A stretch of DNA of 41,093 nucleotides from contig LSSH01000085.1 of the NCBI GenBank assembly GCA_001595885.1, positions 1 through 41,093 on the forward strand, written 5' to 3'. The position numbers and the translations under genes were made by a program. This document shows, piece after piece, positions 4,727-35,339 of the stretch (positions within the stretch are counted from its first letter, which is position 1; every line of letters begins with the position of its first letter). Below the pieces are notes generated by a model. It saw only the letters and a list, made by a program, of their open reading frames with translations. It was not told where the DNA came from and searched no databases. Origin of the DNA: Candidatus Proteinoplasmatales archaeon SG8-5. Lineage in GTDB: Archaea > Thermoplasmatota > Thermoplasmata > SG8-5.

Positions 4727-4784
4727 ACTTTCGTCATTTGGGTTGTGCAAAAGGGTTATCATTGCCTTCGTTGATGCGGGGTTG

Positions 4785-5954
4785 ATGACGGGGTTTGAGG
4801 AAGTTCCACAGCGGATAATTTCTGACTATTCCAAACTTGAGTTCGATTACGTGCCAGATACACTGGTCCACAGGGACGCGCAGATGAAACAGCTGACCTC
4901 GATCTTCTCCCCGGTCGTGGACGCCAATAGGAGCCAGAAAGTGTTCCTGACCGGTGGTGTCGGTTCGGGCAAATCCGCGCTCTCGAAGCGCTTTTGCCTC
5001 GATTTCAGGGACTGGGGCCGCGGCAAGGGTAAGAACATCGAGTTCGTTATTGTCAATTGCAGGTCCAGGAACACGCCCTCGGGCGTGCTCTTGAAGATAC
5101 TGGACAGGTTCCAACCAAACTTCCCGGACCGGGGATTCTCGACGACGGAGATGCTGGAGATTCTCCGAAAGCAGATCACCAGGGACAATGTATTCCTCGT
5201 TATCGTGCTGGACGAGGTCGACGTGCTGATAAAGAAATCAGGCTCCGACCTGCTTTACAGCCTGTCAAGATTTGACGATGAGAAGGTTTCAGAGCATAGG
5301 CACAGCCTATCCTTGATCCTGATATCCCAGCGGCAGATACACGATTTCCTGGACGCTGCCACGATATCGACCATCAAGCGGTCCAACCAGATCAGGTTCG
5401 ACAGGTATTCGAAGGATGAGCTCGGGGACATCGTGGGCCAGAGGGTGGACCTCGCCTTCTTTCCCGGAACCGTGGAGGATGACATCGTCGGTTTCATAGC
5501 CGGGATCGCGGCCGAGTTCGGCGATGCCAGATTTGCCATCGAGCTGTTGGAGAACTCGGGACGGATAGCCAATGAGGAGGGCGCGGAGCAGGTGATGCCG
5601 GAGCACGTGCGCACCGCGAAGGCGATGACATATTCGGTGGTGACGGAGAGCAAGATCGAGCCCCTTGAGAAGCACATGAAGCTCACCCTCCTCGCCGTTT
5701 CAAGGATAATCAGGAAGAAGACGAACGTTTCCACAGGTGAGGCAGAGGAGGCCTACGCACTCGTATGCGAGGAGTTCGGAGAGGAACCGAGGGCGCACAC
5801 GCGGTTCTGGGAGTACCTCAACTACCTGGGTGACGTGGGTCTCCTTGGCCTGAGCGCGTCCGGGAAGGGCAGGGTGGGAAAGACCACTTTGATCACTCTG
5901 CCAGACATCCCGGCAGGTATACTGGAGGAGAAGGTCCTTTCCCTATTGAAGTGA
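4785..5954 (+). CDS. cdc6: Orc1/Cdc6 replication initiator AAA+ ATPase
   Basis: DYVPDTLVHRD, Walker A GGVGSGKS, VNCR, Walker B IVLDEVD, GDARFAIELL sensor, C-terminal winged helix (GRVGKTT). The ATG at 4785 lies about 25 nt after AAAAGGGTTATCAT. Confidence 0.95.
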   Translation: MTGFEEVPQRIISDYSKLEFDYVPDTLVHRDAQMKQLTSIFSPVVDANRSQKVFLTGGVGSGKSALSKRFCLDFRDWGRGKGKNIEFVIVNCRSRNTPSGVLLKILDRFQPNFPDRGFSTTEMLEILRKQITRDNVFLVIVLDEVDVLIKKSGSDLLYSLSRFDDEKVSEHRHSLSLILISQRQIHDFLDAATISTIKRSNQIRFDRYSKDELGDIVGQRVDLAFFPGTVEDDIVGFIAGIAAEFGDARFAIELLENSGRIANEEGAEQVMPEHVRTAKAMTYSVVTESKIEPLEKHMKLTLLAVSRIIRKKTNVSTGEAEEAYALVCEEFGEEPRAHTRFWEYLNYLGDVGLLGLSASGKGRVGKTTLITLPDIPAGILEEKVLSLLK

Positions 5955-5960
5955 GGCCTT

Positions 5961-6662
5961 ATGTTGGACAACAAAAAACTCCTCATATTGCTGGTGACCG
6001 TCGCCCTGGTGGGCGTGCTCTCCTTGTTTCTGTATTCGAGCACCATCAAACCCACGGAGATGGCCATCAGCGGTATTGACGAGGGCATGGTCGGCAAGAT
6101 GGTGAAGACCTCAGGTACCGTCACCTACGCGAGGACTTTGGGCGACGGTTCCTTGTCCCTCATGCTGACCGAAATGCTTGCTGACTCTGGCATACGCGTC
6201 TATATTCCTTCCAGGGTGTCGGAGGACCTGACCGGCGTGATAATAACGCCGGGGGTCGAAATCGAGGTGGTCGGTGAGGTCGAGTTGTACGCCGATGAGG
6301 TCGAGATCTCGGTGACATCCGCTGAAGGCGTGACCGTTCTCTCTGGGTCCGTGAGTCCCGACTACGAGCTCTGGCAGGTCTTGGAATCGGTAGAGGTCCT
6401 CGAGCACATGAACCTGACCACTGAGGGAATAGCCTATGACGTCGACGTGATCGAGTCCTCTGGCAACCTCATCGGCACCAGCTTCGTGATTACCTCCAGG
6501 CATCAGAATGCCTCATACAGTCTCGACTGCATGTACTTTGATGCGGATCTGAGTCCCGCCATCGAGGATGGGGACCTGGTCAAGGTCACGGGTGTGCTCG
6601 AATTCTACATGAACAAGGGTTGCTGGCAATTGATCCTCAATGACATTGAGGTTGAGGATTAG
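5961..6662 (+). CDS. Membrane-anchored protein with two OB-fold domains
   Basis: N-terminal TM helix, then two OB-like units (VGKMVKTSGTV...GVEIEVVGEVELYADEVEI; EDGDLVKVTGVLEFYMNKGCWQLI). Confidence 0.7.
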   Translation: MLDNKKLLILLVTVALVGVLSLFLYSSTIKPTEMAISGIDEGMVGKMVKTSGTVTYARTLGDGSLSLMLTEMLADSGIRVYIPSRVSEDLTGVIITPGVEIEVVGEVELYADEVEISVTSAEGVTVLSGSVSPDYELWQVLESVEVLEHMNLTTEGIAYDVDVIESSGNLIGTSFVITSRHQNASYSLDCMYFDADLSPAIEDGDLVKVTGVLEFYMNKGCWQLILNDIEVED

Positions 6663-6699
6663 AACAAAACTTATTAACCGACTCAAACTTCTACAACCG

Positions 6700-7002
6700 A
6701 TGAGGATATTAAAGCAGAAGGTGTGGGTACATAAGAACGAGGTCGTCGAGAGCCTTACGGTGACCGAGGGAGGTAAAGTGAAGTTCTACAGCCACACCTA
6801 TATGGTCAAGGAAGGGGGAAGAGGCTGGGTGCCTTACGTGAAATGGGACAACTGGGACAGGCAGCCGCACGTCGACAAGTATGACAGCAGCGGGGCGCTG
6901 GTCGAGCAGAAGCACTGCCCGGAGAAATCGGCTGAGGAGGCTATCAAACTGGTTAAGATATTCAGGAAGAACCTGATGACGATGGACATCTCGCAGTTGT
7001 GA
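6700..7002 (+). CDS. Putative toxin, DUF6516/DUF7718-like
   Basis: About 100 aa, beta-rich, with a WDN...PHxD motif; immediately upstream of an HTH gene. Confidence 0.55.
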   Translation: MRILKQKVWVHKNEVVESLTVTEGGKVKFYSHTYMVKEGGRGWVPYVKWDNWDRQPHVDKYDSSGALVEQKHCPEKSAEEAIKLVKIFRKNLMTMDISQL

Positions 7003-7012
7003 TGGTGTATGT

Positions 7013-7453
7013 ATGAAAATTAAAATTATCAAAAAGATCAACCAACAGGAAAAGAAGAATATCATAGAATCATGGAAGAAGAGGTACGGTTCAATGTCAT
7101 CTCTGCAACACAAGGTCGGCCTGTCAAAATGCTCATCGCCCGAGGATGTTAACACCTATATAACGTGGAAATACCTCGCATCGGGAGCTGAGATGGAGGA
7201 AACGGTAACCTTCGTGAATGCCGACATCTTCGACGTCTTTTCCCCTAAAAGGGGCGAGATACTCGAGTACTTGGCCAACAACGAGGTTTCCTCGATCCGC
7301 GAGTTAGCGACCAAGCTCAGGCGTAATTATAAGAACGTGTACGATGACCTGAAAGCGCTGAATAAGTTCGAGTTGGTCGAGCTCAGGGTGGTGGGCCGAG
7401 CCCTAAAACCCTGTTCTTCCGCCTCTGCCGTAGAGGTGATATTGGAAGAATGA
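7013..7453 (+). CDS. HVO_A0114-like winged-HTH protein, putative antitoxin/regulator
   Basis: FSPKRGEILEYL..NEVSSIRELATKLRRNYKNVYDDLKALNKFELVEL. Confidence 0.75.
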   Translation: MKIKIIKKINQQEKKNIIESWKKRYGSMSSLQHKVGLSKCSSPEDVNTYITWKYLASGAEMEETVTFVNADIFDVFSPKRGEILEYLANNEVSSIRELATKLRRNYKNVYDDLKALNKFELVELRVVGRALKPCSSASAVEVILEE

Positions 7454-7517
7454 TTACCTTTTATACCATAATAACTGATGTAACATACTGGCTTCGTAGT
7501 TTACTTTTTATACCATA
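7454..7517 (+). repeat. 17-bp direct repeat, two copies with one mismatch, upstream of the KaiC operon promoter
   Basis: TTACCTTTTATACCATA (7454-7470) and TTACTTTTTATACCATA (7501-7517); TATA box TTTAAATA at 7561-7568. Confidence 0.7.
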
Positions 7518-7601
7518 TAGTTTTGAAAGGCCCAAAAAGCGCTTAATTCTGCGAAATTTATTTAAATAGGTACAGTATTTACTTGTTTAGAAGGAAAGGG
7601 C

Positions 7602-8120
7602 ATGAAAGCGCGTAAGTACGAGAATGTTGAATTTGTTATCAATCACTCAACGGACGAGATGAAGCTGAGCCTTGTTTGGAAGAAGGGCGGCCTTTACCTT
7701 TCACTGTCGGGCCTGTTCCTCACCGACGGGAACACGTGGTACGAGCTTCCGGTGAAGGAATTGGAGAATATCACGGTGGTGAGCGATACGCCGCCGAAGA
7801 TACGCCTCAAGATACCGCAGCTCGACATCATGATATCAGGAGAGAGGGCCGAGAAGCTGCTTGCACTGCGGCACTTCCTTCTGCCGTACATATCCGGTGA
7901 CGAACCGGACAGCGAGCTGAAGGCTCTCCTTCGCTTCTGGGGGATAGGAATAAAGGACGCGCCCATACTCTCAAAGTTGTTGAAAATCGATGAGGAGACT
8001 ATCGAGAAGCTGATTACCGAATCCAAGGACAGGGGTTACATAGACGGTAACGGAGAGATCACACCTGCCGGGAACAGGATGTTCTCGGACGAGGTCAACA
8101 TGGTGGGAGGGGAAGGCTAG
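7602..8120 (+). CDS. Hypothetical protein: predicted PH-like beta domain plus C-terminal winged HTH
   Basis: Beta-rich N-terminus ending in a helix; C-terminal LSKLLKIDEETIEKLITESKDRGYIDGNGEITPAGNRM fits a wHTH pattern. Confidence 0.6.
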   Translation: MKARKYENVEFVINHSTDEMKLSLVWKKGGLYLSLSGLFLTDGNTWYELPVKELENITVVSDTPPKIRLKIPQLDIMISGERAEKLLALRHFLLPYISGDEPDSELKALLRFWGIGIKDAPILSKLLKIDEETIEKLITESKDRGYIDGNGEITPAGNRMFSDEVNMVGGEG

Positions 8121-8121
8121 G

Positions 8122-9012
8122 ATGGAGAAGATAAACGAGTTCGGGAGCTTTGCCGAGACCATCAGCGCCCTGGGTACACTTACGAAGCTCGAATCTGCCG
8201 TCGATGCGGCCGTCAAGAACTCAAAGGTCCCGGCCAGAGAGACGCGGAAGTTCCTCAAGTGCATGACCGTCGAGGAGGCCGGCAACACCGCACTGTTCCA
8301 GTTCATCAGGGAGCTGTTCGTGCGGGTGGGCCTGGGTCAGATGAAGCTGACGAGGAACGACATCTTCAGGTATGACATCGCCATCAATGAAAATCCCGTG
8401 GCCAAGCTGTATCCCAATGTCACCAACAAGAAGACGTGCTACATCACGGCCGAATCAATAATGGAGTTCTTCGCCAAGGACCTGGGGTTGCCCGGGAACT
8501 GCGAGGAGACGGCGTGCGTCAACGCGGGTGATGACCGTTGCGAGTTCTCGATATCTTTACAGCCGCTGGCCGTTTACCAGCTGGCCCTGGATGCCTCGGA
8601 CAAGGAGATAATAATGGCCATCATGGACGGCTCGACCGTTCAGAGCATCGCGACGAAGCTGGACATGAGCGACGAGGAGGCCCAGTACAGGCTGAGCGTG
8701 CTTAAGAGGTATCACATCCTCGATGAAAACTTTGCTATAACCGAGATCGGGGACACCTACCATAAATACGGGGAAGGAATGCCCATTCAGGAGGACGATT
8801 TCCCTCCGCCATGGAAAGATATGGCCGAGATATCGGGAGCCATATCGGCGTCGACCTCGTTCGCCGAGGCCTTCACAGAAACGGCTAAGGAGGAACCGTT
8901 GTGGGACGTGAACGAGGATGACATCGTGAACCTGGCCGACGAGGCTAAGAAAAGCACCAGCTTTGCTGAATTACTTTCAAAACAAATTAAGAACAAGGAA
9001 AAGGACGATTGA
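8122..9012 (+). CDS. V4R-domain protein with a C-terminal HTH and acidic tail
   Basis: GLGQM..., CYITAESIMEFF, CEETACVNAGDDRCEF (V4R signature), then IATKLDMSDEEAQYRLSVLKRYHIL. Confidence 0.8.
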   Translation: MEKINEFGSFAETISALGTLTKLESAVDAAVKNSKVPARETRKFLKCMTVEEAGNTALFQFIRELFVRVGLGQMKLTRNDIFRYDIAINENPVAKLYPNVTNKKTCYITAESIMEFFAKDLGLPGNCEETACVNAGDDRCEFSISLQPLAVYQLALDASDKEIIMAIMDGSTVQSIATKLDMSDEEAQYRLSVLKRYHILDENFAITEIGDTYHKYGEGMPIQEDDFPPPWKDMAEISGAISASTSFAEAFTETAKEEPLWDVNEDDIVNLADEAKKSTSFAELLSKQIKNKEKDD

Positions 9013-9026
9013 ACGGAGGAATGAGA

Positions 9027-9902
9027 ATGGAAAGAATTAAGACGGGAATATATGGGTTGGATCAACTCATTGAAGGTGGACTGAGAGACAACACGGCCAT
9101 TGTGGTTGTAGGTTCCAGTGGTACAGGAAAGACCACTTTTGGGATGCAGTTCCTAATGCACGGCATTGAGAACGGCGAGCAGGGTCTCTACGTTACCATG
9201 GAGGAATCCCCAGAACAACTCATGAAAGAAGCGGAGATGCTTGGATGGGATATGAAGAAGCACTATGAAAAATCCCTCTTCTTCATCCACCTCAAGGGGA
9301 AGAATTTCAAGAAGATGATCGACGAGCAGATCCCGCAACTGGTCAAGGCCAGGAGCGATTACGACATCAAGACACGAGTGGTGATTGACCCAATGACACC
9401 TGTCATCTGGGCGACTGAAGATAAACTTCATCAGAGAGAGCTCATCGGTAAGCTGTTCTACACTCTGAAGGAACTTGGTGTTGTCATGGCCACCGTGGAG
9501 GAGCATTCCAAGCCGGGCGAGATAGTCGGCGAGGATGTACTGCTTCCCGTCTACCTGGCCGACGGCGTCATTGACCTCGAGTACTACCCGATCGGCGGGG
9601 CTTTCAACCGTACCCTCAAGATCATCAAGATGAGGGGGACGCACCACGGCGAGGGAGTGTACCCTTACATATTTGCCAGGGGCATCGGCATAGTGATAAG
9701 GACCTCCCAGGTCGAGGCGGTAAAGGTCGAGGAGGGAAAGAACTTCGATTCCATCTTCGACGAGGCGATAAAAACTGCCGAGTTCATCAAGGCACCCGAT
9801 TACATAATCACCAAACTGAAGAACATGAAGGAAGGCTGGACATACAACTATTCCCCAGAAGAGGCCTTACAGGTGATATTCGACTCCTATGGTTTGAAGT
9901 AA
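9027..9902 (+). CDS. Single-domain KaiC/RAD55-family RecA-fold ATPase
   Basis: RIKTGIYGLDQLIEGG, Walker A GSSGTGKT, YVTMEESPE, RVVIDP, YLADGVI, RTLKIIKMRG. RBS GGAGG at 9015; alternative start at 9021. Confidence 0.93.
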   Translation: MERIKTGIYGLDQLIEGGLRDNTAIVVVGSSGTGKTTFGMQFLMHGIENGEQGLYVTMEESPEQLMKEAEMLGWDMKKHYEKSLFFIHLKGKNFKKMIDEQIPQLVKARSDYDIKTRVVIDPMTPVIWATEDKLHQRELIGKLFYTLKELGVVMATVEEHSKPGEIVGEDVLLPVYLADGVIDLEYYPIGGAFNRTLKIIKMRGTHHGEGVYPYIFARGIGIVIRTSQVEAVKVEEGKNFDSIFDEAIKTAEFIKAPDYIITKLKNMKEGWTYNYSPEEALQVIFDSYGLK

Positions 9903-9917
9903 GGTCGGAGGACTTGG

Positions 9918-10709
9918 ATGGCAAGCGACAAGAAGATAGACAAGCGAATGGAGGCCGAGACGGTCGTACAGTTAAAGCACATGCTGGAGATGGAGCTGAA
10001 GAGGATCCAGGAGACCAACAAGGTCGACATCATCATGTTCGTCGGTATTGACGGGCGCATATTCAGTTCTCTGATACCGCAGCTACTGGACGGCACGCAG
10101 TTCCGACTTCTGAACCTTGTCAAAGGTAACCTTCCTTCCATCTGCAGCCAACTGACGGCCGAGAACCTGGAGATCAGCATCCATAAGTACAAGGACGGCA
10201 CCGTGGTCATCTCCGGTGTCGGGGACAACTGCTTCCTGGTCTCGATATTCACAAAGGAAGTGGATATCAAGGAGCTTCAACCGGTGGTGACCGGTATTAC
10301 CAAGGGCAGCGCCGTGCTGAATCACCTCTTCGAGCTCAAGCCCATAACCCCCGAGGCAATGCAGGGGTATGACGATGAAGTAATCGAGGAGCTGTCGAAG
10401 CTTACGAGGCTGCTCTTCGTGGAGAAGTTTGACGAGACAAGGGAGTACAAGCGAAACATGGAGCTGCTCAAGTTCATGAAGAACAAGATAGGCAGCGTGG
10501 TGGGCATCGGTGCGGTTGACGAGATAGTCACGGTCACGATGAACGAGCTCGGTACTTCGGCCCCTTACATGAAGGAAAAGGACTGGATCAAGTTCACAGA
10601 GATGATAATCGACACCCATATCAAGAAGGCCAGCGGTGACATTGTCGCCGATGAGTGCAGGAAGACATGGATACCAGAGATAGAACGCAAACTCAAATCC
10701 TTCGTTTGA
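9918..10709 (+). CDS. Roadblock/LC7 (MglB-like) domain protein with an extra C-terminal helical domain
   Basis: ELKRIQETNKVDIIMFVGIDGRIFSS...LEISIHKYKDGTVVISGVGDNCFLVSI is the Roadblock alpha-beta pattern. Confidence 0.75.
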   Translation: MASDKKIDKRMEAETVVQLKHMLEMELKRIQETNKVDIIMFVGIDGRIFSSLIPQLLDGTQFRLLNLVKGNLPSICSQLTAENLEISIHKYKDGTVVISGVGDNCFLVSIFTKEVDIKELQPVVTGITKGSAVLNHLFELKPITPEAMQGYDDEVIEELSKLTRLLFVEKFDETREYKRNMELLKFMKNKIGSVVGIGAVDEIVTVTMNELGTSAPYMKEKDWIKFTEMIIDTHIKKASGDIVADECRKTWIPEIERKLKSFV

Positions 10710-10718
10710 TAAACAGGG

Positions 10719-13559
10719 ATGGGAAGAATGGCAAAGGCGAAGAAGACGACGAGGAAGAGCACGACTTCTAAAACTAGTAAGCCAAAGGCCTCGACAAAGA
10801 AGAAGTCGCTTGCCAAGAAGACCCCCAAAAAGACTGAAAAGAAGACCGATAAGAAGCCGGAGCTCATTTGCCAGTTTTGCGAAAAACCCATGAAGGACGA
10901 GAAGACGAAGAAGGTCCACGAAAGTAATTGTAAGAAGAAGAAGGAAGAGAAGGAGAAGAAGCCGCCCAAGAAGGATCTGGAGGAGGCCGTTGCGAAGTTA
11001 AAGGACGAGTTCGAGGACCAGAAGAGAGTATTCAGCGACCGCTTCACCGAGCGGGAGGACAGGCTCCACGAGGAGATACGCGAGCTCAAGGAAGTGCTCA
11101 GGCTGGAGATAGAGCACCGCCACAAGGAGCGGGAGCGGCGGAAGCGGGAGGAGTCGGAGACCGCGGCGGCGGAGGCCGTGCTGGAAGAGGTCGCGGAGGC
11201 GATTGATAAGGAGATGGAGACCTCGGAGGAGACCGCCCGGGAACCGGAGCCATCACCGATACCGGTTGCCCAACCACCAACCCAGATACCGGCCGAAGAC
11301 GCTCCAAGGGCCATTGACATGATTCCGACGCCTGTGCCCGAGATTCCGCCGCCGAAATCCCCCGAGCAGATTGCACCTGGAATCGGCGCAGCTTCGCCTG
11401 AAGAGGTTACGGTTGAAACGGCGGAGATCCCCCCCTCGGAATCGAAGGAGGTCGCAGCCGAGGAACCCGCTGTTCAGCCAGAGGCGGAATCCGAGCCCAA
11501 GATCGACATGGACAGGGAGGCCATCGTCACGCTTATCCGTGAGGAATTGGGGAAAAAGGACGAAGAGAAGGCCGGTCCCGTTATCGAACTGGACGGGATC
11601 ACCGGACAGATCGATGACCTTTCAACGGAGGTCAAGACGCTCAAGAGAGACCTGGAGACAACTTCCTCAAATCTCAGGAAAACGCTGGACAAGATTGAGT
11701 ATGACGCTGAATTCAAGAGAATCGAGCGCGAGCTCAACAAGTTCTCGGAGAAGATAGCCGAGATTATGGACGAGATCGGGTTCGGCGAGCAACTGAACGT
11801 TTCAAAGATACCGCCGACCATCCTGGAGATAGTCTATCAGGCCACGCTGGACGACCTGACTCTCGAGCTGGCCCGGGCGATGGGCACCCAGGATGCGGAA
11901 AAGGTCTCAAGGGCTGCTTTGGAGGAGGTAAGGTTGAAGACGAGCGGCAGCGAGCTCTTCAAGTTCGACGGGCGCAAGATCGTTACCGATAATCTTGCCC
12001 ATTCCATAGAGGCCAACCTCATCTCGGCAAAGCAGATACAGACCACCTACGACGAATTGCTCAGCCGGCTGCTCGAGAATCTCCCCCATCACAAGGCAAA
12101 GAACTTCAGGGCAATGATCAAGGTGAAGAGCCAGGAGTTCGCAGTTGACAGGGCGACAATGCTGACGAAGCACACGGACCGACTTGAGAACGTGCTCGAG
12201 ACCTCCAGCCAGATGCTGGCGGCCTTGTCAGCGCAGCTGAACTCGCTTCAGCTGGAGCTCAGGGAGGAACTTGACGACATCAAGAACAACATGATATTGA
12301 CCAAGGCCGAGGCCTCTGATATCGACCTCATCAAAATCAAGATGAACGAGAGGGACGAGAGGGAGGCAAAGCTCATGAAAGACCTCTCATTGTTGAGGGC
12401 CGAGGTGGAGATGGGAAAGAAGCTGGCAAAGAAGGATGAGAAACCGAAGATGGAATTGGGGGCGGAAGTGAAACCAACCGAGGATAAGCCCGCCAAGAAG
12501 GAGGAAGAGGTTAAGGAGGAGCCGCCGAAGGATGAGGCCGAAACATCCACGCTTGAGGCCGATGTCTTAAAGGCCATCTCCGACGGAGCTGGTTCAAAGA
12601 CGGCCATCAAGAAGAGCACCGGTCTGAAGGAGAAGGAGATTCTTGAGGCTGTTTCAAAACTCGTAAAGGACAAGAGAATCATCGAGAAGAAAGCTGGAAA
12701 GAGGATATCCTACATGACGCCGGATAAAGAACTTGAGGATAAGATCAAGAAGAAGGAGAAACCAAAGGAAGAGAAAAAACCTGAGGTCCCGGAAGTTATT
12801 GAAGGTGAGGATATCATTGTTGTGCCGGAGGGACCTCCGGAGGAAGAGCCCAAAACAAAGAAAGGGCCCAAAAAGAAGGCCGGGGACAAAATGGCAATGG
12901 AAGAGCCTGAGAAGAAGCCCAAGAAGGCTCCGAAGAAAGAGCCTGAAAAGAAAGAAGAGAAGACGCCGCCCAAGAAGGCTCCGAAGAAAGAACCTAAAAA
13001 GAAGGAAGAGAAGAAACCTGAAAAGAAAGCTGAAGATGAGAAGAAGGCACCTTCTGAGAAGGCGAAGGAAAAGATTGAAGAGAAAGCGCCCAAAAAGGAG
13101 GCTGAAGAAGAACCTAAACCCGAGAAAGAGAAGCCAGAGCCTGAAAAGCCGGTCGAGGAAATGGAGCCCGAGGTGTCAAAGGAGCCAGAAGAGCCCGTGG
13201 AACCGAAGGAACCAGATCCGGAAAAGGCCCCTGATAAGAAACCAAAGAAGGAGCCCGAAAAGGAACCTGAAGAGCCCGAGATATCCATACCGACTGAGTC
13301 CAAGGGTCTCGACGAATTAAGCGAGGAAGAGAGAATGGTCCTGGAGGCCATCACGGAGGATGGTCTTACCAGGTCGGGGATCCAATCCAAGGTCGGCAAG
13401 GACCTGAACTACACCACCGTGCTCAGGGCGCTGCGGGTGCTCATCGATTCGGGCTACGTGGGTATCGTTACGAAGGGCAGGCTCACCCTTTATCAGAAAA
13501 TCAGTGTCAAAGAAATGGATAAACCTGAAAAGGAGAAGAACAAAAAGGAGGTGAAATGA
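10719..13559 (+). CDS. Large K/E/P-rich coiled-coil protein with an N-terminal C2HC Zn finger and two winged-helix domains
   Basis: Lys-rich N-tail, CQFC-x12-H-x3-C, heptad coiled coils flanking a globular core, and wHTHs at VLKAISDGAGSKTAIKKSTGL...VSKLVKDKRI and VLEAITEDGLTRSGIQSKVG...LRVLIDSGYV. Alternative start at 10728. Confidence 0.75.
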   Translation: MGRMAKAKKTTRKSTTSKTSKPKASTKKKSLAKKTPKKTEKKTDKKPELICQFCEKPMKDEKTKKVHESNCKKKKEEKEKKPPKKDLEEAVAKLKDEFEDQKRVFSDRFTEREDRLHEEIRELKEVLRLEIEHRHKERERRKREESETAAAEAVLEEVAEAIDKEMETSEETAREPEPSPIPVAQPPTQIPAEDAPRAIDMIPTPVPEIPPPKSPEQIAPGIGAASPEEVTVETAEIPPSESKEVAAEEPAVQPEAESEPKIDMDREAIVTLIREELGKKDEEKAGPVIELDGITGQIDDLSTEVKTLKRDLETTSSNLRKTLDKIEYDAEFKRIERELNKFSEKIAEIMDEIGFGEQLNVSKIPPTILEIVYQATLDDLTLELARAMGTQDAEKVSRAALEEVRLKTSGSELFKFDGRKIVTDNLAHSIEANLISAKQIQTTYDELLSRLLENLPHHKAKNFRAMIKVKSQEFAVDRATMLTKHTDRLENVLETSSQMLAALSAQLNSLQLELREELDDIKNNMILTKAEASDIDLIKIKMNERDEREAKLMKDLSLLRAEVEMGKKLAKKDEKPKMELGAEVKPTEDKPAKKEEEVKEEPPKDEAETSTLEADVLKAISDGAGSKTAIKKSTGLKEKEILEAVSKLVKDKRIIEKKAGKRISYMTPDKELEDKIKKKEKPKEEKKPEVPEVIEGEDIIVVPEGPPEEEPKTKKGPKKKAGDKMAMEEPEKKPKKAPKKEPEKKEEKTPPKKAPKKEPKKKEEKKPEKKAEDEKKAPSEKAKEKIEEKAPKKEAEEEPKPEKEKPEPEKPVEEMEPEVSKEPEEPVEPKEPDPEKAPDKKPKKEPEKEPEEPEISIPTESKGLDELSEEERMVLEAITEDGLTRSGIQSKVGKDLNYTTVLRALRVLIDSGYVGIVTKGRLTLYQKISVKEMDKPEKEKNKKEVK
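12918..13019 (+). repeat. 51-bp in-frame tandem duplication (PKKAPKKEPxKKEEKxP x2)
   Basis: cccaagaaggctccgaagaaaga... starts at 12918 and again at 12969. Confidence 0.8.
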
Positions 13560-13560
13560 A

Positions 13561-14193
13561 ATGCTCGATGTAGCATTGGTCTCGCTTATCCAAGACATGA
13601 GCGAGAAGGCTGGTGTCGAGGGCACCATCCAATACTGGGCTAGAGTGGGTGAAAGCCTGGCCAAGAGAATGGGCAAGGAAGCGTATATGGGTTGGCCGTC
13701 CTTCAACGTCGCGTTGAGGGAGGGTCGAACAGCGTTTTCCATAGAGGGAAGCGTCACTGCCTTGACCGACCTGGCCATAACAGACGTGGACGGCGACGTT
13801 GTCGGTTACATCTACGCGTTGGAGACCTGTGTCTTCAACCCGACTATCGTGCGGATACGATACAGCGTCGGCGAGTTGCCGAGGGCAGATAGTGCCGTCG
13901 CAGAGGAATACAACAACAGCGTCAGGGACACGGCGGTCTGCAACTTCTGCGTGATACACCAGAGGTTCAGGGAGGAGGTGGCAAAGAACATCTCCATCGC
14001 CGACCAGGCGTTGGACTGCGTGCAGCTGGCCAACAGGGGCTTCACAGGTGACACGAAGATCGCTGAGGATGCCCTTAAGAAGATAGGCATCAACCCCGAG
14101 TACGTCCGCAGTCTGTTGAGGAACTACGCATGTGTCTACGCCATCCTGATGAGGGGCGCAAGACTCAAGGGCGAGGAAGAGGAGGCAGAGTAG
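13561..14193 (+). CDS. Hypothetical V4R/MetOD1-like Cys/His protein (paralog A)
   Basis: YWARVGESLAKRM, ETCVFNP, CNFCVIHQRFREEVA; RBS GGAGGTGA upstream. Confidence 0.55.
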   Translation: MLDVALVSLIQDMSEKAGVEGTIQYWARVGESLAKRMGKEAYMGWPSFNVALREGRTAFSIEGSVTALTDLAITDVDGDVVGYIYALETCVFNPTIVRIRYSVGELPRADSAVAEEYNNSVRDTAVCNFCVIHQRFREEVAKNISIADQALDCVQLANRGFTGDTKIAEDALKKIGINPEYVRSLLRNYACVYAILMRGARLKGEEEEAE

Positions 14194-14205
14194 GAGGTGA
14201 GATGA

Positions 14206-14820
14206 ATGGGAGAAAGGAGAAAAGGTTTGATAGCAGACAACCCGTTCGTTGACGTTGCCGCCTGCCTGTTCCTCGAGGACATCGCAGACAAGCAAGGAGC
14301 CAGCGGGATGAACAACTATCTTGTCAGCCTTGCGACGTCCCTCGCCAAGAGCATGCCCGAAGAGGAGTACGCCACATGGGACGACTTCCTCGACTCGTTG
14401 GTAAAGGGCGAGTCCATCATATCCGCGTTCGAGGATGTGATTACCGTCACGCCGCACTGCGCGGTCACGACCGAGTGCCCGTTCACAAAGGGCTGGCTCG
14501 AATACACCAAGAGGATCGGAACGTTCTCGAAGATACATACGGACGTGGCCGAGTATTATAACTCCGTATACAAGCCCGGCACGATCAACTCAATGTGTAT
14601 CATCCACCAGACCTTCAGGAACGCGGCGGCCGAGAGGATCAAGATCGCAGGCAAGATCCTGAAGATATCCCAGGTCGCGGCTGTCTGGGAGGACGGGACC
14701 AGGAAGATAGCGCCGGACGAGTGGGTGCCCATATTGCTGGAGAAGGCTCAGATAACCGGGACAGACCTGAACATGATATTGAGGAACAACGCAGACGTCT
14801 GGGTGATGTACACAGAGTGA
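14206..14820 (+). CDS. Hypothetical V4R/MetOD1-like Cys/His protein (paralog B)
   Basis: YLVSLATSLAKSM, TECPFTK, SMCIIHQTFRNAAA; RBS GGAGGTGA upstream. Confidence 0.55.
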   Translation: MGERRKGLIADNPFVDVAACLFLEDIADKQGASGMNNYLVSLATSLAKSMPEEEYATWDDFLDSLVKGESIISAFEDVITVTPHCAVTTECPFTKGWLEYTKRIGTFSKIHTDVAEYYNSVYKPGTINSMCIIHQTFRNAAAERIKIAGKILKISQVAAVWEDGTRKIAPDEWVPILLEKAQITGTDLNMILRNNADVWVMYTE

Positions 14821-14985
14821 TCCACCGAACAGAAGCGTGACGAACGCTATTCCAGGCATGCCCAGTCATATCAGTGGTAAACCTTATCATATGGTCTGGA
14901 TATACCGTATCCGGCCCTTATCTCAGGATGGACCGAGTGTGTCAGCACCTGCATTCCGGACCTGAAAGAAGGGAGAGGTGAAGGC

Positions 14986-15543
14986 GTGATCGAGCTGGCA
15001 AGGAGCGGTGACCTCATATTCTACAAGTTTGAGGAACCTTCTGAGATAAACAAGTTCCATATACTCGGTTCCGAAGACGGGAGGTTCTCCGGTGGGGGTT
15101 TCGAGTTCTTCCGAGGTCTGGGCATCATCGGATACGACAAGACCTTCAAGATATGGCTCAGGAAGTTCCCGAGACCCATCTTCATCGTGGCTGCCAAGGG
15201 CAATCACATTTACTCTTGGGTGTTCATCGAGGAATGGTTAGAGGAAGCTTCGGTCGACGGGATGGCCGTTTGGGTTCTCAGGGCGATAGAGACGCTTCCG
15301 TCGGAACGGAGGAAGAAGATAGGGTTCAGGCTCGTTGTCCTAGGGGCAAAGCAGAGCACCGGTTACCTTATCACCAAACCGTTGACGCCGGAGGCCGAGA
15401 GGTTCTTCAGGATGTGCGGGTTCATGTCCCCGAAAGAGTTCAAGAAACCGCCCATCGACTTCACGCGGCATCCTGGCCACTTGATACTTCCGCCGTACAA
15501 AAAGGAGCAGCTGATCGAGCAGGTTGATGATTATTTTAAATAA
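14986..15543 (+). CDS. GNAT-fold acetyltransferase-like protein
   Basis: LRAIETLPSERRKKIGFRL (motif A-like) and PEAERFFRMCGF (motif B). GTG start after AGGTGA. Confidence 0.7.
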   Translation: MIELARSGDLIFYKFEEPSEINKFHILGSEDGRFSGGGFEFFRGLGIIGYDKTFKIWLRKFPRPIFIVAAKGNHIYSWVFIEEWLEEASVDGMAVWVLRAIETLPSERRKKIGFRLVVLGAKQSTGYLITKPLTPEAERFFRMCGFMSPKEFKKPPIDFTRHPGHLILPPYKKEQLIEQVDDYFK

Positions 15544-15549
15544 GAAAAG

Positions 15550-15572
15550 ACCAGTGGCGCGTGGCCACTGGT
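15550..15572 (-). terminator. Hairpin terminator between convergent genes
   Basis: 9-bp stem ACCAGTGGC/GCCACTGGT with a 5-nt loop, followed on the minus strand by CTTTTCTT. Confidence 0.6.
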
Positions 15573-15580
15573 GTGGGGAC

Positions 15581-16480
15581 TCAAAAGAGGGAGAGTATCT
15601 CATTGCCGAACTGCTCGGCCTTGGTCTCTCCGATGCCGTAGATGGACTGCAGGTCCTCTACCGATGCTGGGTCCTTGCTTGCTAGTTCCCTCAGTGTCCG
15701 GTTCTGAAGCACGAAATACTTGGGCTTGCCCATCTCCTCCGACTTCTTGTCCCTCCACTCCTGCAGCAGGCCCTTGCGCCTCTCGACCTCCTCGATCTCC
15801 AGGTTGGACTCGACCTCCACTGGGAGGTCGTCACCGCCGGCCAGGACGTCCAGGCCCTTGCTCGTGATGACGAGCACCGGGAACTCGGATTCCTCCGCGT
15901 AGGCGATGTAGTTCTCCTCGATGAGCCAGTCTATGAGCGCGAGCACCTCCTTCATGGATGCGCCCTTGGCTACGCCGTACTGGCCCAGCTTGCCGATGTT
16001 TATGGTCAAGACCTTCTTCGACACGGAGCCCGTTAACACGCGGGCTATTGTGGTGCGACCGTAGGTCCCGCCCATGTCGAACACGCATTTCAACACAGAG
16101 AGCGCTAGGCTTGAGGTCTCGGTCTCGGCGGGAACGCCCTGCAGGGCGATGACCTCCGTGAAGGCCATTGTCAGCTGCTGTCCGTTCTCGGTAGTGGCGA
16201 ACACCTCGATGTCCGCGTCCACGACGTTGCGGGCGAGGCTGATCTCCGCCCCGCTGTCTATGTAGCATATCGGGCGGACGCCAGCGCACAGGTTGTGCAC
16301 GACAACCGCGCCGTCGGGCCTGGCGGTCATCAGGACCTTTCCGTCGAATTCCTTCGTAACGGCCTCGTTGACGTACGTGCCCCGGCACTGGCCGACCACG
16401 ATGATGGTCTGGAGGTTGGTCATTTCGTTCGTTTGGCTTTGCATATCGTTTGTTTCGTTTTGGTTCATTTTTTCAACCAT
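15581..16480 (-). CDS. Fusion of a NucS/EndoMS N-terminal-like domain with RecQ RQC and HRDC domains, with no catalytic domain
   Basis: IIVVGQCRGTY...VLMTARPDGAVVVH...VRPICY (NucS-N like); YGRTTIARVLTGS...LIDWLIEENYI...PVLVITSKG (RQC); LQEWRDKKSEEMGKPKYFVLQNRTLRELA..P...LQSIYGIGETKAEQFGNEIL (HRDC). Start at 16480 or 16468. Confidence 0.8.
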   Translation of the reverse strand: MVEKMNQNETNDMQSQTNEMTNLQTIIVVGQCRGTYVNEAVTKEFDGKVLMTARPDGAVVVHNLCAGVRPICYIDSGAEISLARNVVDADIEVFATTENGQQLTMAFTEVIALQGVPAETETSSLALSVLKCVFDMGGTYGRTTIARVLTGSVSKKVLTINIGKLGQYGVAKGASMKEVLALIDWLIEENYIAYAEESEFPVLVITSKGLDVLAGGDDLPVEVESNLEIEEVERRKGLLQEWRDKKSEEMGKPKYFVLQNRTLRELASKDPASVEDLQSIYGIGETKAEQFGNEILSLF

Positions 16481-16482
16481 CC

Positions 16483-16548
16483 TGCCTTCTTCGGAAGGCA
16501 ACGGCTTCGGGCATTCGGGTGTATGCCCCGAATGCCTCACTACGAAGC
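16483..16548 (-). promoter_or_regulatory. Structured 5' leader with two hairpins
   Basis: TGCCTTC-TTCG-GAAGGCA (16483-16500); GGCATTCGGG/CCCGAATGCC (16510-16536) enclosed by GCTTCG/CGAAGC (16504-16548). Confidence 0.55.
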
Positions 16549-16641
16549 AATTGTAACAATGTTAGGTTAGTATTTATTAACCATATAGTACTCTTAACGT
16601 ACAAGTAACAAAGTTATATATGCGAAGCCTTTCAGCGACCA

Positions 16642-17736
16642 ATGGCGCGCACCAACGTAACACAGGAGACACGGGACCGAGGCTCCTCCAAGGCACGCAT
16701 CAACATGACGCACGGGGCCGGGGGCGAGGCCATGCAGAAATTGCTGGCCGAGGTCATCCTATCCCGGCTTGAAGACAACAGGCCAGAGATTGGCCTTAAA
16801 GAGCTGGACGACTCCGGCGTCATGGACGACATCGTTCTCACCATGGACGGTCATACGGTGAACCCGCTGTTCTATCCTGGCGGAGACATAGGGAAGCTGG
16901 CCGTCTGTGGCACGATAAACGACATCTGCGCGATGGGCGCGGAGCCGGTCGCCCTCGCCCTCGGCCTTATCATGGAGGACGGCCTAGAGATGGACGATAT
17001 CTCAAGAATCATGGAGAGCATCGGCCTGACCTGTAAGGAATCGGGTGTACCCGTCATCACCGGAGATACGAAGGTTGTAGAGAAAGGCGCAATCGACAAG
17101 TTAATGGTAACAACCTCAGGCATAGGAAGGATGGGCGGGTGCCTGAAGAAAAACAACTCAGTTTTGCAGGAAAGAACAAGCCGCCAGCAGAAGTGGCTCC
17201 AGGACTGCAATCTCAAAGTCGGGGACGACGTCATCGTCACCGGCAGCCTCGGCGACCACGGCATCTCACTCATGAGCTTCAGGGAAGGTTATGGGTTCGA
17301 AACGACCCTGCAAAGTGACAACGCGCCGCTGAACAAGCTGATGGCCGAAGCCCTGAGCATCGGCGGCATCGTCTCGGCAAAGGATCCCACCAGGGGAGGT
17401 CTGGCCAACTCGCTGAACGAGTGGTCGTCCAAGTCCGGCGTGGGCATCCTCGTGAAGGAGGACGAATTGCCCATCAACCAGCAGGTGAGGAGCGCGTCAG
17501 AGCTCCTCGGAATCGACCCGCTCGAGGTGGGCAACGAGGGCAAGATGGTCATCGGCGTCATTCCTGAGATGACGGAGGAGGTCCTCGCAATAATTCGGCA
17601 GAACGAACACGGAAGGGACGCCAGGGTCATCGGCAAGGCCACTGATGAGGTGAAGCGCGTCGTGCTGGAGACCGTTGTCGGGGGCAAGAGGATCATCGAG
17701 GCACCGGTCGGGGACCCGGTGCCGAGGATTTGTTAG
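16642..17736 (+). CDS. hypE: Hydrogenase maturation protein HypE
   Basis: HGAGG, GDIGKLAVCGTINDI, GDTKVVEKG, DPTRGGL, C-terminal PRIC. Confidence 0.97.
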   Translation: MARTNVTQETRDRGSSKARINMTHGAGGEAMQKLLAEVILSRLEDNRPEIGLKELDDSGVMDDIVLTMDGHTVNPLFYPGGDIGKLAVCGTINDICAMGAEPVALALGLIMEDGLEMDDISRIMESIGLTCKESGVPVITGDTKVVEKGAIDKLMVTTSGIGRMGGCLKKNNSVLQERTSRQQKWLQDCNLKVGDDVIVTGSLGDHGISLMSFREGYGFETTLQSDNAPLNKLMAEALSIGGIVSAKDPTRGGLANSLNEWSSKSGVGILVKEDELPINQQVRSASELLGIDPLEVGNEGKMVIGVIPEMTEEVLAIIRQNEHGRDARVIGKATDEVKRVVLETVVGGKRIIEAPVGDPVPRIC

Positions 17737-17739
17737 GTT

Positions 17740-18816
17740 TTATTGACGCTGATATTTGAATGCAATAGTGCACCCGCCCTCGTGGCTAACCATGCAGGGG
17801 CCTACCGGGCTCGAGGGGGTGCAGGCCTTGGCGAATAGTGGACAATCCGTCGGCTCCAGTTCTCCCCGGAGCACGTCGCCGCACTTGCATCCGGGCGGCT
17901 CCTCGAACTCCTTCTGCCAGACCGGTTCCAGTATGTCCCTGTATCGTAGACGGGCGTCCAATTGCTCGTATTCATTTCTGATTTTGAGGCCGGTGCCAGG
18001 CAGCACCGGGAAGCCGCGCCATTTCACGTCGCAGGGTTCGAAGACCCTCCTCATCGCTTCCTGGGCTTTCAGGTTGCCCTCGTATGTGACGGCACGCTCG
18101 TACGCGTTGTCCACCTTGGCCTCGCCGTTCTTTATCTGGTGGGCCACCATGTAGATGCCCATGAGGAAGTCGAGGGGCTCGAATCCGGCCACAACCTGCG
18201 GGATACCGTGATCCTTGGACAAGAATTCGTACATCTTCCAGCCTGTGATGACGCTCACATGCCCGGGCTCGATGAGGCCGTTCAGCTCGACCTTCCCTGA
18301 CTCGACAAGGATGCGGAGTGCGTTGGGAATCGTGCGGTGACAGCTGAGCACCGAGAAATTCCCTGGGGGTTGTGCCAGCAGGACAGCGGCAGTGCTGGGG
18401 GCCGTGGTCTCGAAGCCCACTGCGATGAACACAACCTCTTTATCGGTTTGGTCGGCCAGTTCCACGGCATCGGCAATGCTGTAAACGAGCCGGACGTCAG
18501 CGCCCTCGGACTTCGCCGTGAGGAGCGAGCCGGTCTCGCTGGGCACCTTGAGGAGGTCACCGAATATTGCCACCGTCTTACCTGCCCTGGCAAGTGCGAG
18601 AGCCTCTTCTATCTCCTTGGGGGTGGTAACGCAGACCGGGCAGCCCGGTCCCTGGCGCACGTTGACCCCGACGTCTTCTAGCATCTCCTGGAGACCATAG
18701 CGGACGAGTGTGTCCTGGTGGGTGCCGCACACGTGCATGAGCTTGATGTTCAGGTCCATGGAACGCAGTTTGTCAATGATCTTGGCGGCCATCTCCCTGT
18801 CGCGAAACTCGAACAT
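17740..18816 (-). CDS. hypD: Hydrogenase maturation protein HypD
   Basis: HVCGTH, GPGCPVC, GFETT, PGHVS, GFEP, GPCMVSHEGGC. Confidence 0.97.
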   Translation of the reverse strand: MFEFRDREMAAKIIDKLRSMDLNIKLMHVCGTHQDTLVRYGLQEMLEDVGVNVRQGPGCPVCVTTPKEIEEALALARAGKTVAIFGDLLKVPSETGSLLTAKSEGADVRLVYSIADAVELADQTDKEVVFIAVGFETTAPSTAAVLLAQPPGNFSVLSCHRTIPNALRILVESGKVELNGLIEPGHVSVITGWKMYEFLSKDHGIPQVVAGFEPLDFLMGIYMVAHQIKNGEAKVDNAYERAVTYEGNLKAQEAMRRVFEPCDVKWRGFPVLPGTGLKIRNEYEQLDARLRYRDILEPVWQKEFEEPPGCKCGDVLRGELEPTDCPLFAKACTPSSPVGPCMVSHEGGCTIAFKYQRQ

Positions 18817-19202
18817 CACTCATCCTCCAGGTCCAGGACCAGGTTCCTGACGACGCATTCCTTTCCGTGAAGCACGTCTATCGGGCCGTTGCATTCGGGG
18901 CATGAGAACTGCGGTATAGCGATGTGGTACTCTTCGGTCTCCCCAGCCTTCATGGCGCCCTCGTAATCGCATCTCCGGCATTTCACCTTTGCCTGGATCG
19001 GTATAATGGTCAGGGCGTCGTCCTTGATGTCCGGCTCGTTTTCCACGAGGGCTCTGAAGCCGAATCGGAGCGCATCGTGCGAGAGGAAGCTTAGCTCGCC
19101 CACTTCGAGGACTATCTCCTTGACGAAGTTGAGGTTGTCGTGCTTGCCCATCTCACCTTTCACAAGTTCGACTATCGATGAGATCACAGAGAATTCGTGC
19201 AC
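18816..19202 (-). CDS. hypA: Hydrogenase nickel chaperone HypA
   Basis: MHEFS N-terminus (GTG start), CRRC and CPEC Zn motifs, GKE. Confidence 0.95.
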   Translation of the reverse strand: MHEFSVISSIVELVKGEMGKHDNLNFVKEIVLEVGELSFLSHDALRFGFRALVENEPDIKDDALTIIPIQAKVKCRRCDYEGAMKAGETEEYHIAIPQFSCPECNGPIDVLHGKECVVRNLVLDLEDE

Positions 19203-34894: not shown

Positions 34895-35323
34895 TCAACT
34901 ACCTCCTTCCTTAGCTAAGCAATCCTTGCAAACACCCTTGAAATAACCGTGCACCTCATCGATCCTGTGTCCCCCCTGCAGCACTTCTTTGAGATACGGG
35001 CATTCTACCTCGATATCAATGATCTCCCCGCATTTCTTACAAAGGAAATGCTGATGAGGATTAATAATACTATCGAATCTCAGCTCGGACTCCGAAATTG
35101 TCAGGGCGTGAATCAAATTATGTGACCTCAACGTGTCCAAGGTGTTGTAGACCGTCGTCCTGGACAATGACGGATTCTTCTTTTTCAGGTCCCTGTAGAT
35201 CATGTCCGCGTTCGGATGGTTCCTGTTCTTGTCCAGATATCTCAATATTTCCAACCTTTGCGGGGTTACCTTGATGCCGTTCTTCCTAAGAAAAAGGGCA
35301 TAATCGTCCAAAGCCACCGTCAT
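34895..35323 (-). CDS. Fur-family regulator, probably PerR
   Basis: [23 protein letters not shown]...[16 protein letters not shown]; heads a peroxide-defence cluster. Confidence 0.9.
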
Positions 35324-35339
35324 TGTATCATTTCCTAAT

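Follow-up and report, generated by a model that had tools for sequence, protein, structure and literature searches.

A conserved single-copy operon of uncultured Thermoplasmatota encoding a KaiC-like ATPase, a Roadblock-fold protein, a V4R protein and two members of an unnamed Cys/His family

We analysed a 41,093-nucleotide stretch of DNA from Candidatus Proteinoplasmatales archaeon SG8-5 (contig LSSH01000085.1, here contig C85 of a 1.25-Mb metagenome-assembled genome (MAG), 70% complete), which we will henceforth refer to as the window, and focused on a cluster of eight co-oriented open reading frames (ORFs) on its plus strand (positions 7602–15543). These genes, g1 to g8, encode in this order a winged helix-turn-helix (wHTH) protein, a V4R–wHTH protein, a single-domain KaiC-like ATPase, a Roadblock-fold protein, a long variable protein, two paralogs with a Cys/His motif and a GNAT-like protein. 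The junctions from g1 to g7 measure 1, −4, 15, 9, 1 and 12 bp, and g8 follows g7 after 165 bp; GGAGG-like purine-rich motifs were found 5′ of g2, g3, g4, g6, g7 and g8 and weakly at g1, and none was seen before the start of g5. Both the ORF coordinates and these motifs agree with the original prediction for this DNA, made from its letters alone, which had described tightly packed, co-oriented genes mostly preceded by a ribosome-binding site. It had also noted that no histidine kinase, receiver, KaiB, small GTPase, archaellin or gas-vesicle gene is present, and indeed none of the 15 ORFs that we scanned (positions 4743–18819) matched any of these. Its domain calls fared less evenly: KaiC and V4R passed the Pfam cut-offs and Roadblock was recovered by fold, support for wHTH domains in g1, g2 and g5 was weak to moderate, the GNAT call fell below the cut-off, and a PH domain in g1 (E 0.24) was not confirmed.

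We found that the g1–g8 cluster is a real, conserved, single-copy operon of uncultured Thermoplasmatota. The whole gene order was kept in 16 out of 16 loci of relatives, usually together with two upstream genes, u120 and an HVO_A0114-family wHTH gene. Our wider survey covered 80 named loci, 50 of which had at least 7 kb of upstream and 72 at least 2 kb of downstream sequence. In the 50 upstream-assessable loci, g3, g4 and g5 were each recovered in 49 by profile searches, and the figures for g2 and g1 were 48 and 38, respectively; of the 72 downstream-assessable ones all had g7 and 70 had g8. The original prediction had considered that the genes might not co-occur in other genomes; with this order and these counts, they clearly do. 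The single clear exception, locus L103, carries g6–g8 and none of g1–g5 within 8 kb upstream, and could be a rearrangement or an assembly join. Given such conserved synteny, the cluster is far beyond what chance would produce. Conservation differed strongly between the genes, with a mean column identity of 90% for g6, 77% for g3, 76% for g7, 62% for g4, 60% for g8, 58% for g2, 53% for g1 and 32% for g5. The g4 gene occurs in one copy per genome and was present in 29 of 41 related genomes (12 of the 21 high-quality ones). In a phylum-wide sample the g4 profile matched 14 out of 401 genomes (3 out of 261 of high quality); the positive genomes span several families of other classes, and most sampled families had no match. 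One contig assigned to a cyanobacterial MAG (L060) also carries g6–g8, its g6 being 87% identical to the archaeal g6 of the window, and was probably binned into that MAG by mistake.

Public sources list near-identical proteins from Thermoplasmata or Thermoplasmatota archaea, annotated without exception as “hypothetical protein”. Literature searches combining KaiC with V4R, Roadblock, MglB, longin and Thermoplasmata returned no description of the operon, the 2017 survey of archaeal KaiC neighbourhoods lying outside their scope, and Pfam, NCBIfam, PADLOC and the literature searched gave no described system for the unit, in line with the original prediction, which had not recognised the gene set as a characterised one. 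One could still regard the cluster as genes brought together by chance, as a mobile island or as a system of defence against phages, given that the genome holds many KaiC-family genes (29 matches in 1.25 Mb) and that, in PADLOC searches, wHTH parts matched the Csa3, CasR and CARF3 models, with a weak mad8 match on the P-loop. These PADLOC matches, however, span the wHTH part alone, and no defence family was found for g4–g8; neither an integrase nor flanking repeats were found around the cluster; and a gene order fixed in 48–49 of 50 loci, in single copy, already contradicts such an explanation, which we regard as extremely improbable.

The only NTPase encoded in the operon is g3 (9009–9902, plus strand; 297 residues), a single-domain KaiC-like ATPase that scores far above the PF06745 cut-off (169.6 bits vs. 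26.6; E 9.1e-50; model positions 1–227 of 231). Its start is more likely an ATG at 9021 or 9027 than the TTG at 9009. The GSSGTGKTT motif, the E65–E66 pair and D127, which we take to be the Walker A motif, the catalytic Glu pair and the Walker B Asp, respectively, are invariant in 14 orthologs, and a C-terminal extension of 55–65 residues is conserved. Two better-known identities were considered and rejected. The protein is not a cyanobacterial circadian KaiC, having one domain and scoring 96 bits against TIGR02655 (cut-off 546) and 138 against NF006799 (cut-off 408), and a gene for a KaiB or KaiA partner is absent from the 15 ORFs of positions 4743–18819, the only part of the genome that the search for KaiB covered. 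Nor is it ArlH/FlaH, since it scores 54 bits against NF052589 (cut-off 215) and the cluster contains no archaellum family. Elsewhere in the same genome KaiC genes adjoin genes that match the Arf-type GTPase model: on contig C98, KaiC pieces at 13618–14157 are followed by GTPase matches at 14215–14721 and 14797–15273, and on contig C88 KaiC lies at 12365–13036 and a GTPase match at 13862–14242.

Directly downstream, g4 (9918–10709, plus strand) combines a Roadblock/LC7/MglB-fold domain (residues ~16–138) with a five-helix C-terminal domain. Sequence searches did not reveal this: g4 has no Pfam or NCBIfam match, residues 1–139 scanned alone gave no Robl_LC7 (PF03259) match even at E ≤ 10, and a profile search of the PDB returned nothing significant (a Robl_LC7 chain appeared at E 0.25). 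The AlphaFold2 (AF2) model (predicted local distance difference test score, pLDDT, 83.2) places helices at residues 16–33, 59–82 and 117–138 and strands at 38–43, 48–52, 86–91, 94–101 and 105–111, i.e., the alpha-beta-beta-alpha-beta-beta-beta-alpha sandwich of the Roadblock fold. When this model was compared with the PDB using Foldseek, 65 matches had E ≤ 0.001 and the top ones were all Roadblock, MglB or Ragulator proteins. The best match had an E-value of 7.8e-6, a probability of 1.0 and a target template modelling (TM) score of ~0.70; 9jue, 6izw, 6hjm and 1j3w matched at E 8e-6 to 3e-5 with probability 1.0 and target TM 0.62–0.73. Some g4 homologs are also named Roadblock/LC7/MglB by JGI. 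The N-terminal domain of g4 is thus a Roadblock domain as judged by its predicted fold only. It shares this fold with the MglA/MglB and Ragulator/Rag systems, in which Roadblock dimers are platforms that regulate an NTPase. Unlike those systems, g4 has an extra five-helix domain and no Pfam Robl_LC7 match, and its operon lacks a small GTPase: no GTPase family that could include a cognate partner of the MglA/MglB type was found in the cluster, whose NTPase is a KaiC of the RecA superfamily. Elsewhere, operon-bearing genomes contain 2–4 canonical Roadblock genes and 10–13 matches to the Arf model, many of which may be other GTPases because the model also matches 12 out of 14 control genomes.

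The most conserved protein of the cluster is g6 (13561–14193, plus strand), an alpha/beta protein with the motif C90...C130-x2-H133...C191. Next to it, g7 (14206–14820, plus strand) is a paralog with ~28–30% identity and the same Cys/His motif, which bears out the earlier description of the two as Cys/His paralogs. All Cys/His ligands are kept in g6 and some have been lost from g7 in several lineages; in the window's own g7 the last Cys is replaced by D, and the g7 of locus L027 lacks three ligands. Across 24 diverse members of the family C90 and C130 (g6 numbering) are invariant and P91, H133, R137, C191 and Y193 nearly so. This conservation of C90, C130, H133 and C191 suggests a Cys3-His metal site, which the g6 family probably has. 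Neither protein has a Pfam or NCBIfam match, and profile searches of the PDB with g6 and g7 gave nothing significant.

We also considered whether g6 and g7 have a V4R/Bet3-like fold, as found in PoxR, MopR, the TRAPP core and Asgard TRAPPC3. The AF2 model of g6 (pLDDT 88.5, predicted TM score 0.85) retrieved TRAPPC3 (6aq3, E 1.9e-3), BcsD (3aj2) and PoxR (5frw) from the PDB, with query TM 0.34–0.41 and a root mean square deviation of ~7 Å. The same set of TRAPPC3, PoxR and BcsD is listed as structural kin of Thor-TRAPPC3 in the available excerpt of a recent study (Commun Biol 2024, PMC10933270). There are further parallels, namely that the g6/g7 pair consists of paralogs, like the heterodimers of the Bet3 family, that their Cys/His cluster recalls the zinc site of V4R, and that the operon contains a true V4R with a Cys cluster in g2. 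On the other hand, the matches of g6 are weak (E 1.9e-3 to 0.2, query TM < 0.42), no sequence relation to V4R was found, and no GEF (guanine nucleotide exchange factor) activity or GTPase partner is known for g6/g7. An Atlas search with g6 yielded sub-threshold leads alone (DUF5943 0.86, V4R 0.84), which were not used. A V4R/Bet3-like fold of g6/g7 is therefore possible and not established.

To place the family in a broader context, we looked for its members beyond the operon. When 1.84 billion proteins were searched with a g6/g7 profile, only 107 representatives reached E ≤ 0.001, and the distant stand-alone members are true g6 homologs (hhalign probability 99.6, E 2.8e-24). No Pfam family was assigned (E ≤ 0.01) to 36 out of 40 distant members or to any of eight further metagenomic members scanned; another two of the 40 had a weak sub-threshold match alone. 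In several proteins the domain is fused to others: P0239 has KaiC (PF06745, E 8e-40) on the N-terminal side of a g6/g7 domain (hhalign probability 98.4, E 6.8e-15), P0247, seen on two contigs, has an Arf-type GTPase (E 1.4e-25) there instead, and in P0244 and P0258, from Hodarchaeales and Thorarchaeota MAGs, the domain follows ~300 residues without an assigned family.

A scan of metagenomes with seven distant members gave 107 confirmed loci, of which 80 were retained; neighbours were hand-picked from the 35 longest, and 66 + 10 ORFs were scanned, covering 24 loci. In 18 of these 24 the g6/g7-like gene has a Robl_LC7 gene as its immediate neighbour. This neighbour is mostly a REC-DUF4388-Robl_LC7 gene located immediately upstream, after a sigma-54 response regulator and usually a histidine kinase. 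The g6/g7-like gene is adjoined by a MinD/ParA-like ATPase in 6 of the 24 loci and by a DnaA-like ATPase in 3. Taking these 18 loci together with the archaeal operon, we consider Roadblock plus some P-loop NTPase to be the constant companion of the family in bacteria and archaea. Two arrangements recur. The first (L125, L144, L148, L153, L156, L174–L176, L188 and others) is a bacterial operon of a PAS/GAF histidine kinase, a sigma-54 response regulator, a REC-PATAN(DUF4388)-Roadblock protein, the g6/g7-like protein and often a MinD/ParA-like ATPase. In the second (L152, L155, L170), genes for a DUF4388 protein and a DnaA-like AAA+ ATPase precede, in that order, the g6/g7-like gene, which in L170 is followed by a stand-alone Roadblock gene and a phage-type integrase. 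The bacterial operon resembles ours in that a g6/g7-family gene stands directly beside a Roadblock gene, often with a P-loop ATPase nearby. It differs in its two-component phosphorelay input and sigma-54 activator output, in an ATPase that is MinD/ParA-like or DnaA-like rather than KaiC, and in having one g6/g7-family copy rather than two. Neither the family nor this bacterial operon was described in the literature that we searched (DUF4388/PATAN with Roadblock; KaiC partners).

According to the accessible part of a preprint, DUF4388 is the PATAN domain, found in regulators of pilus-motor polarity, and PATAN regulators as well as MglA/MglB set the polarity of type IV pilus motors (bioRxiv 10.1101/2021.06.11.447907). 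The bacterial PATAN-Roadblock relatives point to pilus motors, and the operon might be read as helping to regulate the motor of an archaellum or type IV pilus, in which g3 would act like ArlH on an ArlI-type ATPase encoded elsewhere. The weak matches of g3 to the ArlH and FlaH models (54 and 46 bits) would fit, but the former lies far under its cut-off, and no archaellin, ArlI/J or pilin gene was found within positions 4743–18819 or the conserved block. We consider this role very unlikely.

The operon begins with two proteins of a more regulatory appearance. The first, g1 (7602–8120, plus strand), has a beta-rich N-terminal domain and a wHTH domain of the wHTH-PRTase-associated type, which barely passes its threshold (PF24409, 27.4 bits vs. 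a cut-off of 27, E 3.5e-6); a profile search of the PDB with g1 returned nothing significant. The second, g2 (8122–9012, plus strand), consists of a V4R domain (PF02830, 34.3 bits vs. 31), a wHTH domain with weak support (PF24409, E 0.0017; the wHTH part of PADLOC CARF3, E 7.9e-7) and a tail. Three cysteines of g2 (C106, C132 and C140) are invariant in 13 orthologs. The protein also carries SFAE motifs at residues 9–12, 246–249 and 280–283 (FGSFAE, TSFAEAF and TSFAELL) and, within otherwise variable tails, an invariant EDFPPPW, all of which look like docking or modification sites. In joining a Cys-bearing V4R to a wHTH, g2 resembles MsvR, the redox-sensing wHTH-V4R regulator of methanogens, but the domain order is reversed, and an NCBIfam score of 26 bits (cut-off 220) excludes g2 from that family.

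The abundance of such domains invites another explanation, namely that the V4R-wHTH protein, g1 and the HVO_A0114-type protein are separate transcription factors or sensors, co-transcribed with unrelated housekeeping genes, and that KaiC, Roadblock and g6/g7 form no complex. It would account for wHTH domains in four or five proteins and for the resemblance of g2 to MsvR in its V4R part (an NCBIfam match at E 5.9e-6 whose score falls well short of the cut-off). However, g2–g8 follow one another in the same order in different classes of the phylum, with very tight junctions between the genes, and the fusions and neighbourhoods that tie the g6/g7 family to KaiC, to GTPases and to Roadblock in unrelated organisms suggest that these proteins act together. 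We thus find this explanation distinctly improbable.

The unit also proved wider than the eight genes of the original prediction, all of which were confirmed: to these we add two upstream genes (6640–7453) and a promoter-operator (7454–7568). The first of the two genes, u120 (6640–7002, plus strand), encodes a small conserved protein with only weak Pfam matches (DUF7718, E 0.013); since conservation sets in only around residue 19, translation may really begin at a later codon. It is co-oriented upstream of the operon in 36 of the 50 assessable loci and in 11 of the 16 loci of relatives. The second (7013–7453, plus strand) encodes a wHTH protein of the HVO_A0114 family (PF25212, E 2.2e-19) and is adjoining and co-oriented in 36 of the 50 loci.

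The 148-bp spacer 5′ of g1 contains two direct repeats of the TTAC-N7-ACCATA type, TTACCTTTTATACCATA (7454–7470, plus strand) and, 47 bp after it, TTACTTTTTATACCATA (7501–7517, plus strand), with CTGGC between them. Reading the sequence directly, we also found the element CGAAATTTATTTAA (7552–7565, plus strand) ~50 nt before the start of g1. It belongs to a CGAAA-N-TATATAA-like motif, presumably the archaeal BRE/TATA (B recognition element and TATA box), which is present in 16 out of 17 loci (the window and 16 relatives). The repeats themselves, with the consensus nTTTACnTTTnAnACCATAA, occur in all 17 of these loci, 46–49 bp apart. The repeat pattern matched twice in the window vs. 0.10 matches expected, and the two copies are the sole exact ones in their own genome. 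Among five near-complete relatives, the paired repeat occurs once per genome in four, always at this promoter, and the fifth has a variant second repeat which our search pattern missed. The repeat pair is a dedicated control site that probably serves autoregulation. An obvious candidate to bind this operator is the HVO_A0114-type wHTH protein, a binding that we infer as probable; its gene stays beside the promoter even where it is inverted (L106–L108).

The longest gene of the cluster, g5 (10719–13559, plus strand), encodes a variable protein of 946 residues. An alignment of its orthologs distinguishes a K-rich tail with a zinc knuckle, helical E/K-rich stretches, a core, a first wHTH domain, a K/E/P-rich linker and a second, C-terminal wHTH domain. 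The core (residues ~345–480) is invariant and has no Pfam match; an Atlas search with it returned nothing usable, its structural rows coming from a poor model (pLDDT 0.50) and falling below the naming bar. Of the two wHTH domains the C-terminal one passes its cut-off when scanned by itself (Penicillinase_R, 23.0 vs. 22.6), and the other is weak. The knuckle, C-x2-C-x12-H-x3-C in the window's protein, is present in 6 of 11 aligned orthologs and, like the K-rich tail, is lineage-specific. Orthologs range from 514 to 960 residues, and shorter forms of 359–506 residues exist. The original prediction had presented the system as built around this protein as a giant scaffold, a view that we do not support because g5 is the least constrained of the eight proteins (32% identity, 514–960 residues, knuckle in 6 of 11 orthologs) and g6 and KaiC are the most constrained.

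A scaffolding role for g5 nevertheless features in a different explanation, by which the operon would encode a positional or structural machine: g5, with its Lys-rich tails and its pair of wHTH domains, would be an elongated scaffold bound to DNA, KaiC its remodelling ATPase, and Roadblock together with g6/g7 the determinants of polarity or localisation, all serving nucleoid organisation, segregation, choice of the division site or cell polarity. Several observations are consistent with it. Some g5 homologs are labelled SbcC-like or chromosome segregation ATPase by JGI (names typical of long helical proteins), and the Foldseek matches of g6 include BcsD, a former of filaments or rings. Its strongest support, in our view, comes from the housekeeping-level conservation of the cluster, single-copy with a nearly invariant g6, and from the company of its bacterial relatives, which stand beside REC-PATAN-Roadblock genes and, in 6 of 24 loci, MinD/ParA-like ATPases; PATAN and MglA/MglB, as the same preprint states in its accessible part, control the polarity of pilus motors (bioRxiv 10.1101/2021.06.11.447907). 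By contrast, g5 is poorly conserved outside its core, with Lys-rich tails and a zinc knuckle confined to particular lineages, no membrane, cytoskeletal or ParB-like partner was found in the cluster, and the dedicated operator suggests regulated rather than constitutive expression. Nor is the link to cdc6 conserved. A Cdc6/Orc1 gene followed by one for a 233-residue OB-fold protein lies upstream of the operon (4743–6662), and their proximity had earlier been taken to raise a role in the cell cycle, nucleoid organisation or polarity. This neighbourhood was found in a same-genus contig only (1 of 16 loci, as L032; 1 of 80 loci, as L037; the two agree in length and gene order and are probably one contig), and we reject the cell-cycle link for that reason. 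Overall, we judge the positional machine to be unlikely, if still credible.

We tentatively favour a signalling role, to which we would give somewhat less than an even chance: the operon would encode a KaiC ATPase switch regulated by a platform of Roadblock and g6/g7, with V4R as the sensor and wHTH domains as the output. Specifically, the single-domain ATPase g3 would act as a switch or timer. The g4 protein and the g6/g7 pair would form a platform that binds g3 and sets its ATPase or phosphorylation state, in parallel with the action of Roadblock/longin platforms on small GTPases. As input, a small ligand, a metal or the redox state would be sensed by the Cys-bearing V4R of g2 and perhaps also by the putative metal site of g6, and the output would follow from DNA binding by g1, g2 and the long g5 through their wHTH domains. 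Transcription would start from the operon's own BRE/TATA promoter under the control of the two repeats 47 bp apart, probably through the adjacent HVO_A0114-type wHTH protein. The data show the gene content, the synteny, the folds and families given above, the promoter element, the domain fusions and the Roadblock neighbourhood of the g6/g7 family; every physical contact, which way the signal runs, what is sensed and what is acted upon are things that we infer here.

Several points weigh against this switch. Conservation as strong as that of housekeeping genes would fit a structural machine just as well as one for signalling, and wHTH domains need not bind DNA. The Roadblock-fold protein g4 could serve a GTPase outside the operon, given the canonical Roadblock genes and Arf-model matches elsewhere in operon-bearing genomes. 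The matches of g6/g7 to Bet3, V4R and BcsD in Foldseek are weak (E 1.9e-3 to 0.2), and hhalign found no sequence relation between g6/g7 and the V4R of g2 (probability 0.4). The KaiC fusion P0239 comes from a single 1.9-kb metagenomic contig and may be a frameshift artefact. That the central region of the fusions P0247 and P0258 might be a Roadblock domain was not supported, as hhalign comparison with the g4 family gave a probability below 1. On the supporting side, short contigs from sediment metatranscriptomes (four runs of one study) match parts of g1, g3, g4, g6, g7 and g8 with zero differences, with coverage at 7771–8046 in g1, 9210–9436 in g3, 13647–14097 in g6, 14184–14664 at g7 and 14992–15409 in g8; they fit transcription in situ, may also be explained by carried-over DNA, and as contigs cannot tell whether the genes share a single transcript. 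The promoter, g2 and most of g5 had no such cover, which we do not count as a finding.

The last gene of the operon, g8 (14986–15543, plus strand), encodes a GNAT-like protein that scores below the Pfam cut-off (Acetyltransf_7, 16.4 bits vs. 27, E 0.012). All 8 matches at E ≤ 10 in a profile search of the PDB have the GNAT fold, but they are weak (E 0.058–0.3 at best). The R-x-x-G-x-G/A motif, a GNAT motif, is partly kept. We regard g8 as probably a divergent GNAT-fold acyltransferase that falls below every threshold. In several relatives the gap between g7 and g8 is 8–62 bp. Convergent with g8, and separated from it by a palindromic hairpin (15550–15572), lies a minus-strand gene (15581–16540) for a 319-residue protein with RQC and HRDC domains, a weak PH-like match to NucS-N and no helicase core. 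The same gene is also found 3′ of the operon in several relatives (L031, L032, L037–L040, L043 and L044). Elsewhere in the window, the GC content drops to 0.448 at 35001–36000 compared with ~0.55, and counts of sigma-70 promoters and intrinsic terminators equalled those in shuffled sequences, a type of scan that is ill-suited to archaea.

Among the nearest precedents for the proposed switch is the idea of archaeal KaiC-like ATPases as “signal transduction hubs”, which Makarova, Galperin and Koonin reportedly put forward in mBio in 2017. The operon resembles such hubs in placing a single-domain KaiC-family ATPase beside V4R, Roadblock and HTH output domains with no KaiA/KaiB clock partner in the cluster. 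It differs in that its gene set is fixed at 8–10 genes across Thermoplasmatota, that the C-terminal domain of g4, the g5 core and g6/g7 belong to no family, and that it has its own conserved operator. A bolder reading would make the operon a prokaryotic platform of the TRAPP/Ragulator type, in which a Bet3/V4R-like g6/g7 heterodimer and a g4 dimer govern KaiC instead of a small GTPase. We think this quite unlikely. If it were true, the g6/g7 domain, which also occurs in Hodarchaeales and Thorarchaeota proteins, would be the missing ancient third partner of Roadblock-based NTPase switches, and this partner would predate the GTPase-specific platforms of eukaryotes.

Few regulators of archaea have expanded as much, or are as poorly understood, as the KaiC-like ATPases. 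The operon described here gives one of them fixed and deeply conserved partners, i.e., a Roadblock protein, a V4R sensor, DNA-binding proteins and an unnamed Cys/His family, and with this fixed partner set and a defined operator the hub idea can be put to the test with purified components. The wider result is the g6/g7 family itself, which is rare, has no Pfam entry, neighbours Roadblock from bacteria to archaea and is found fused to KaiC and to Arf-like GTPases. If this family regulates NTPase switches, it would bear on the origin of platforms of the Roadblock, longin and TRAPP type.

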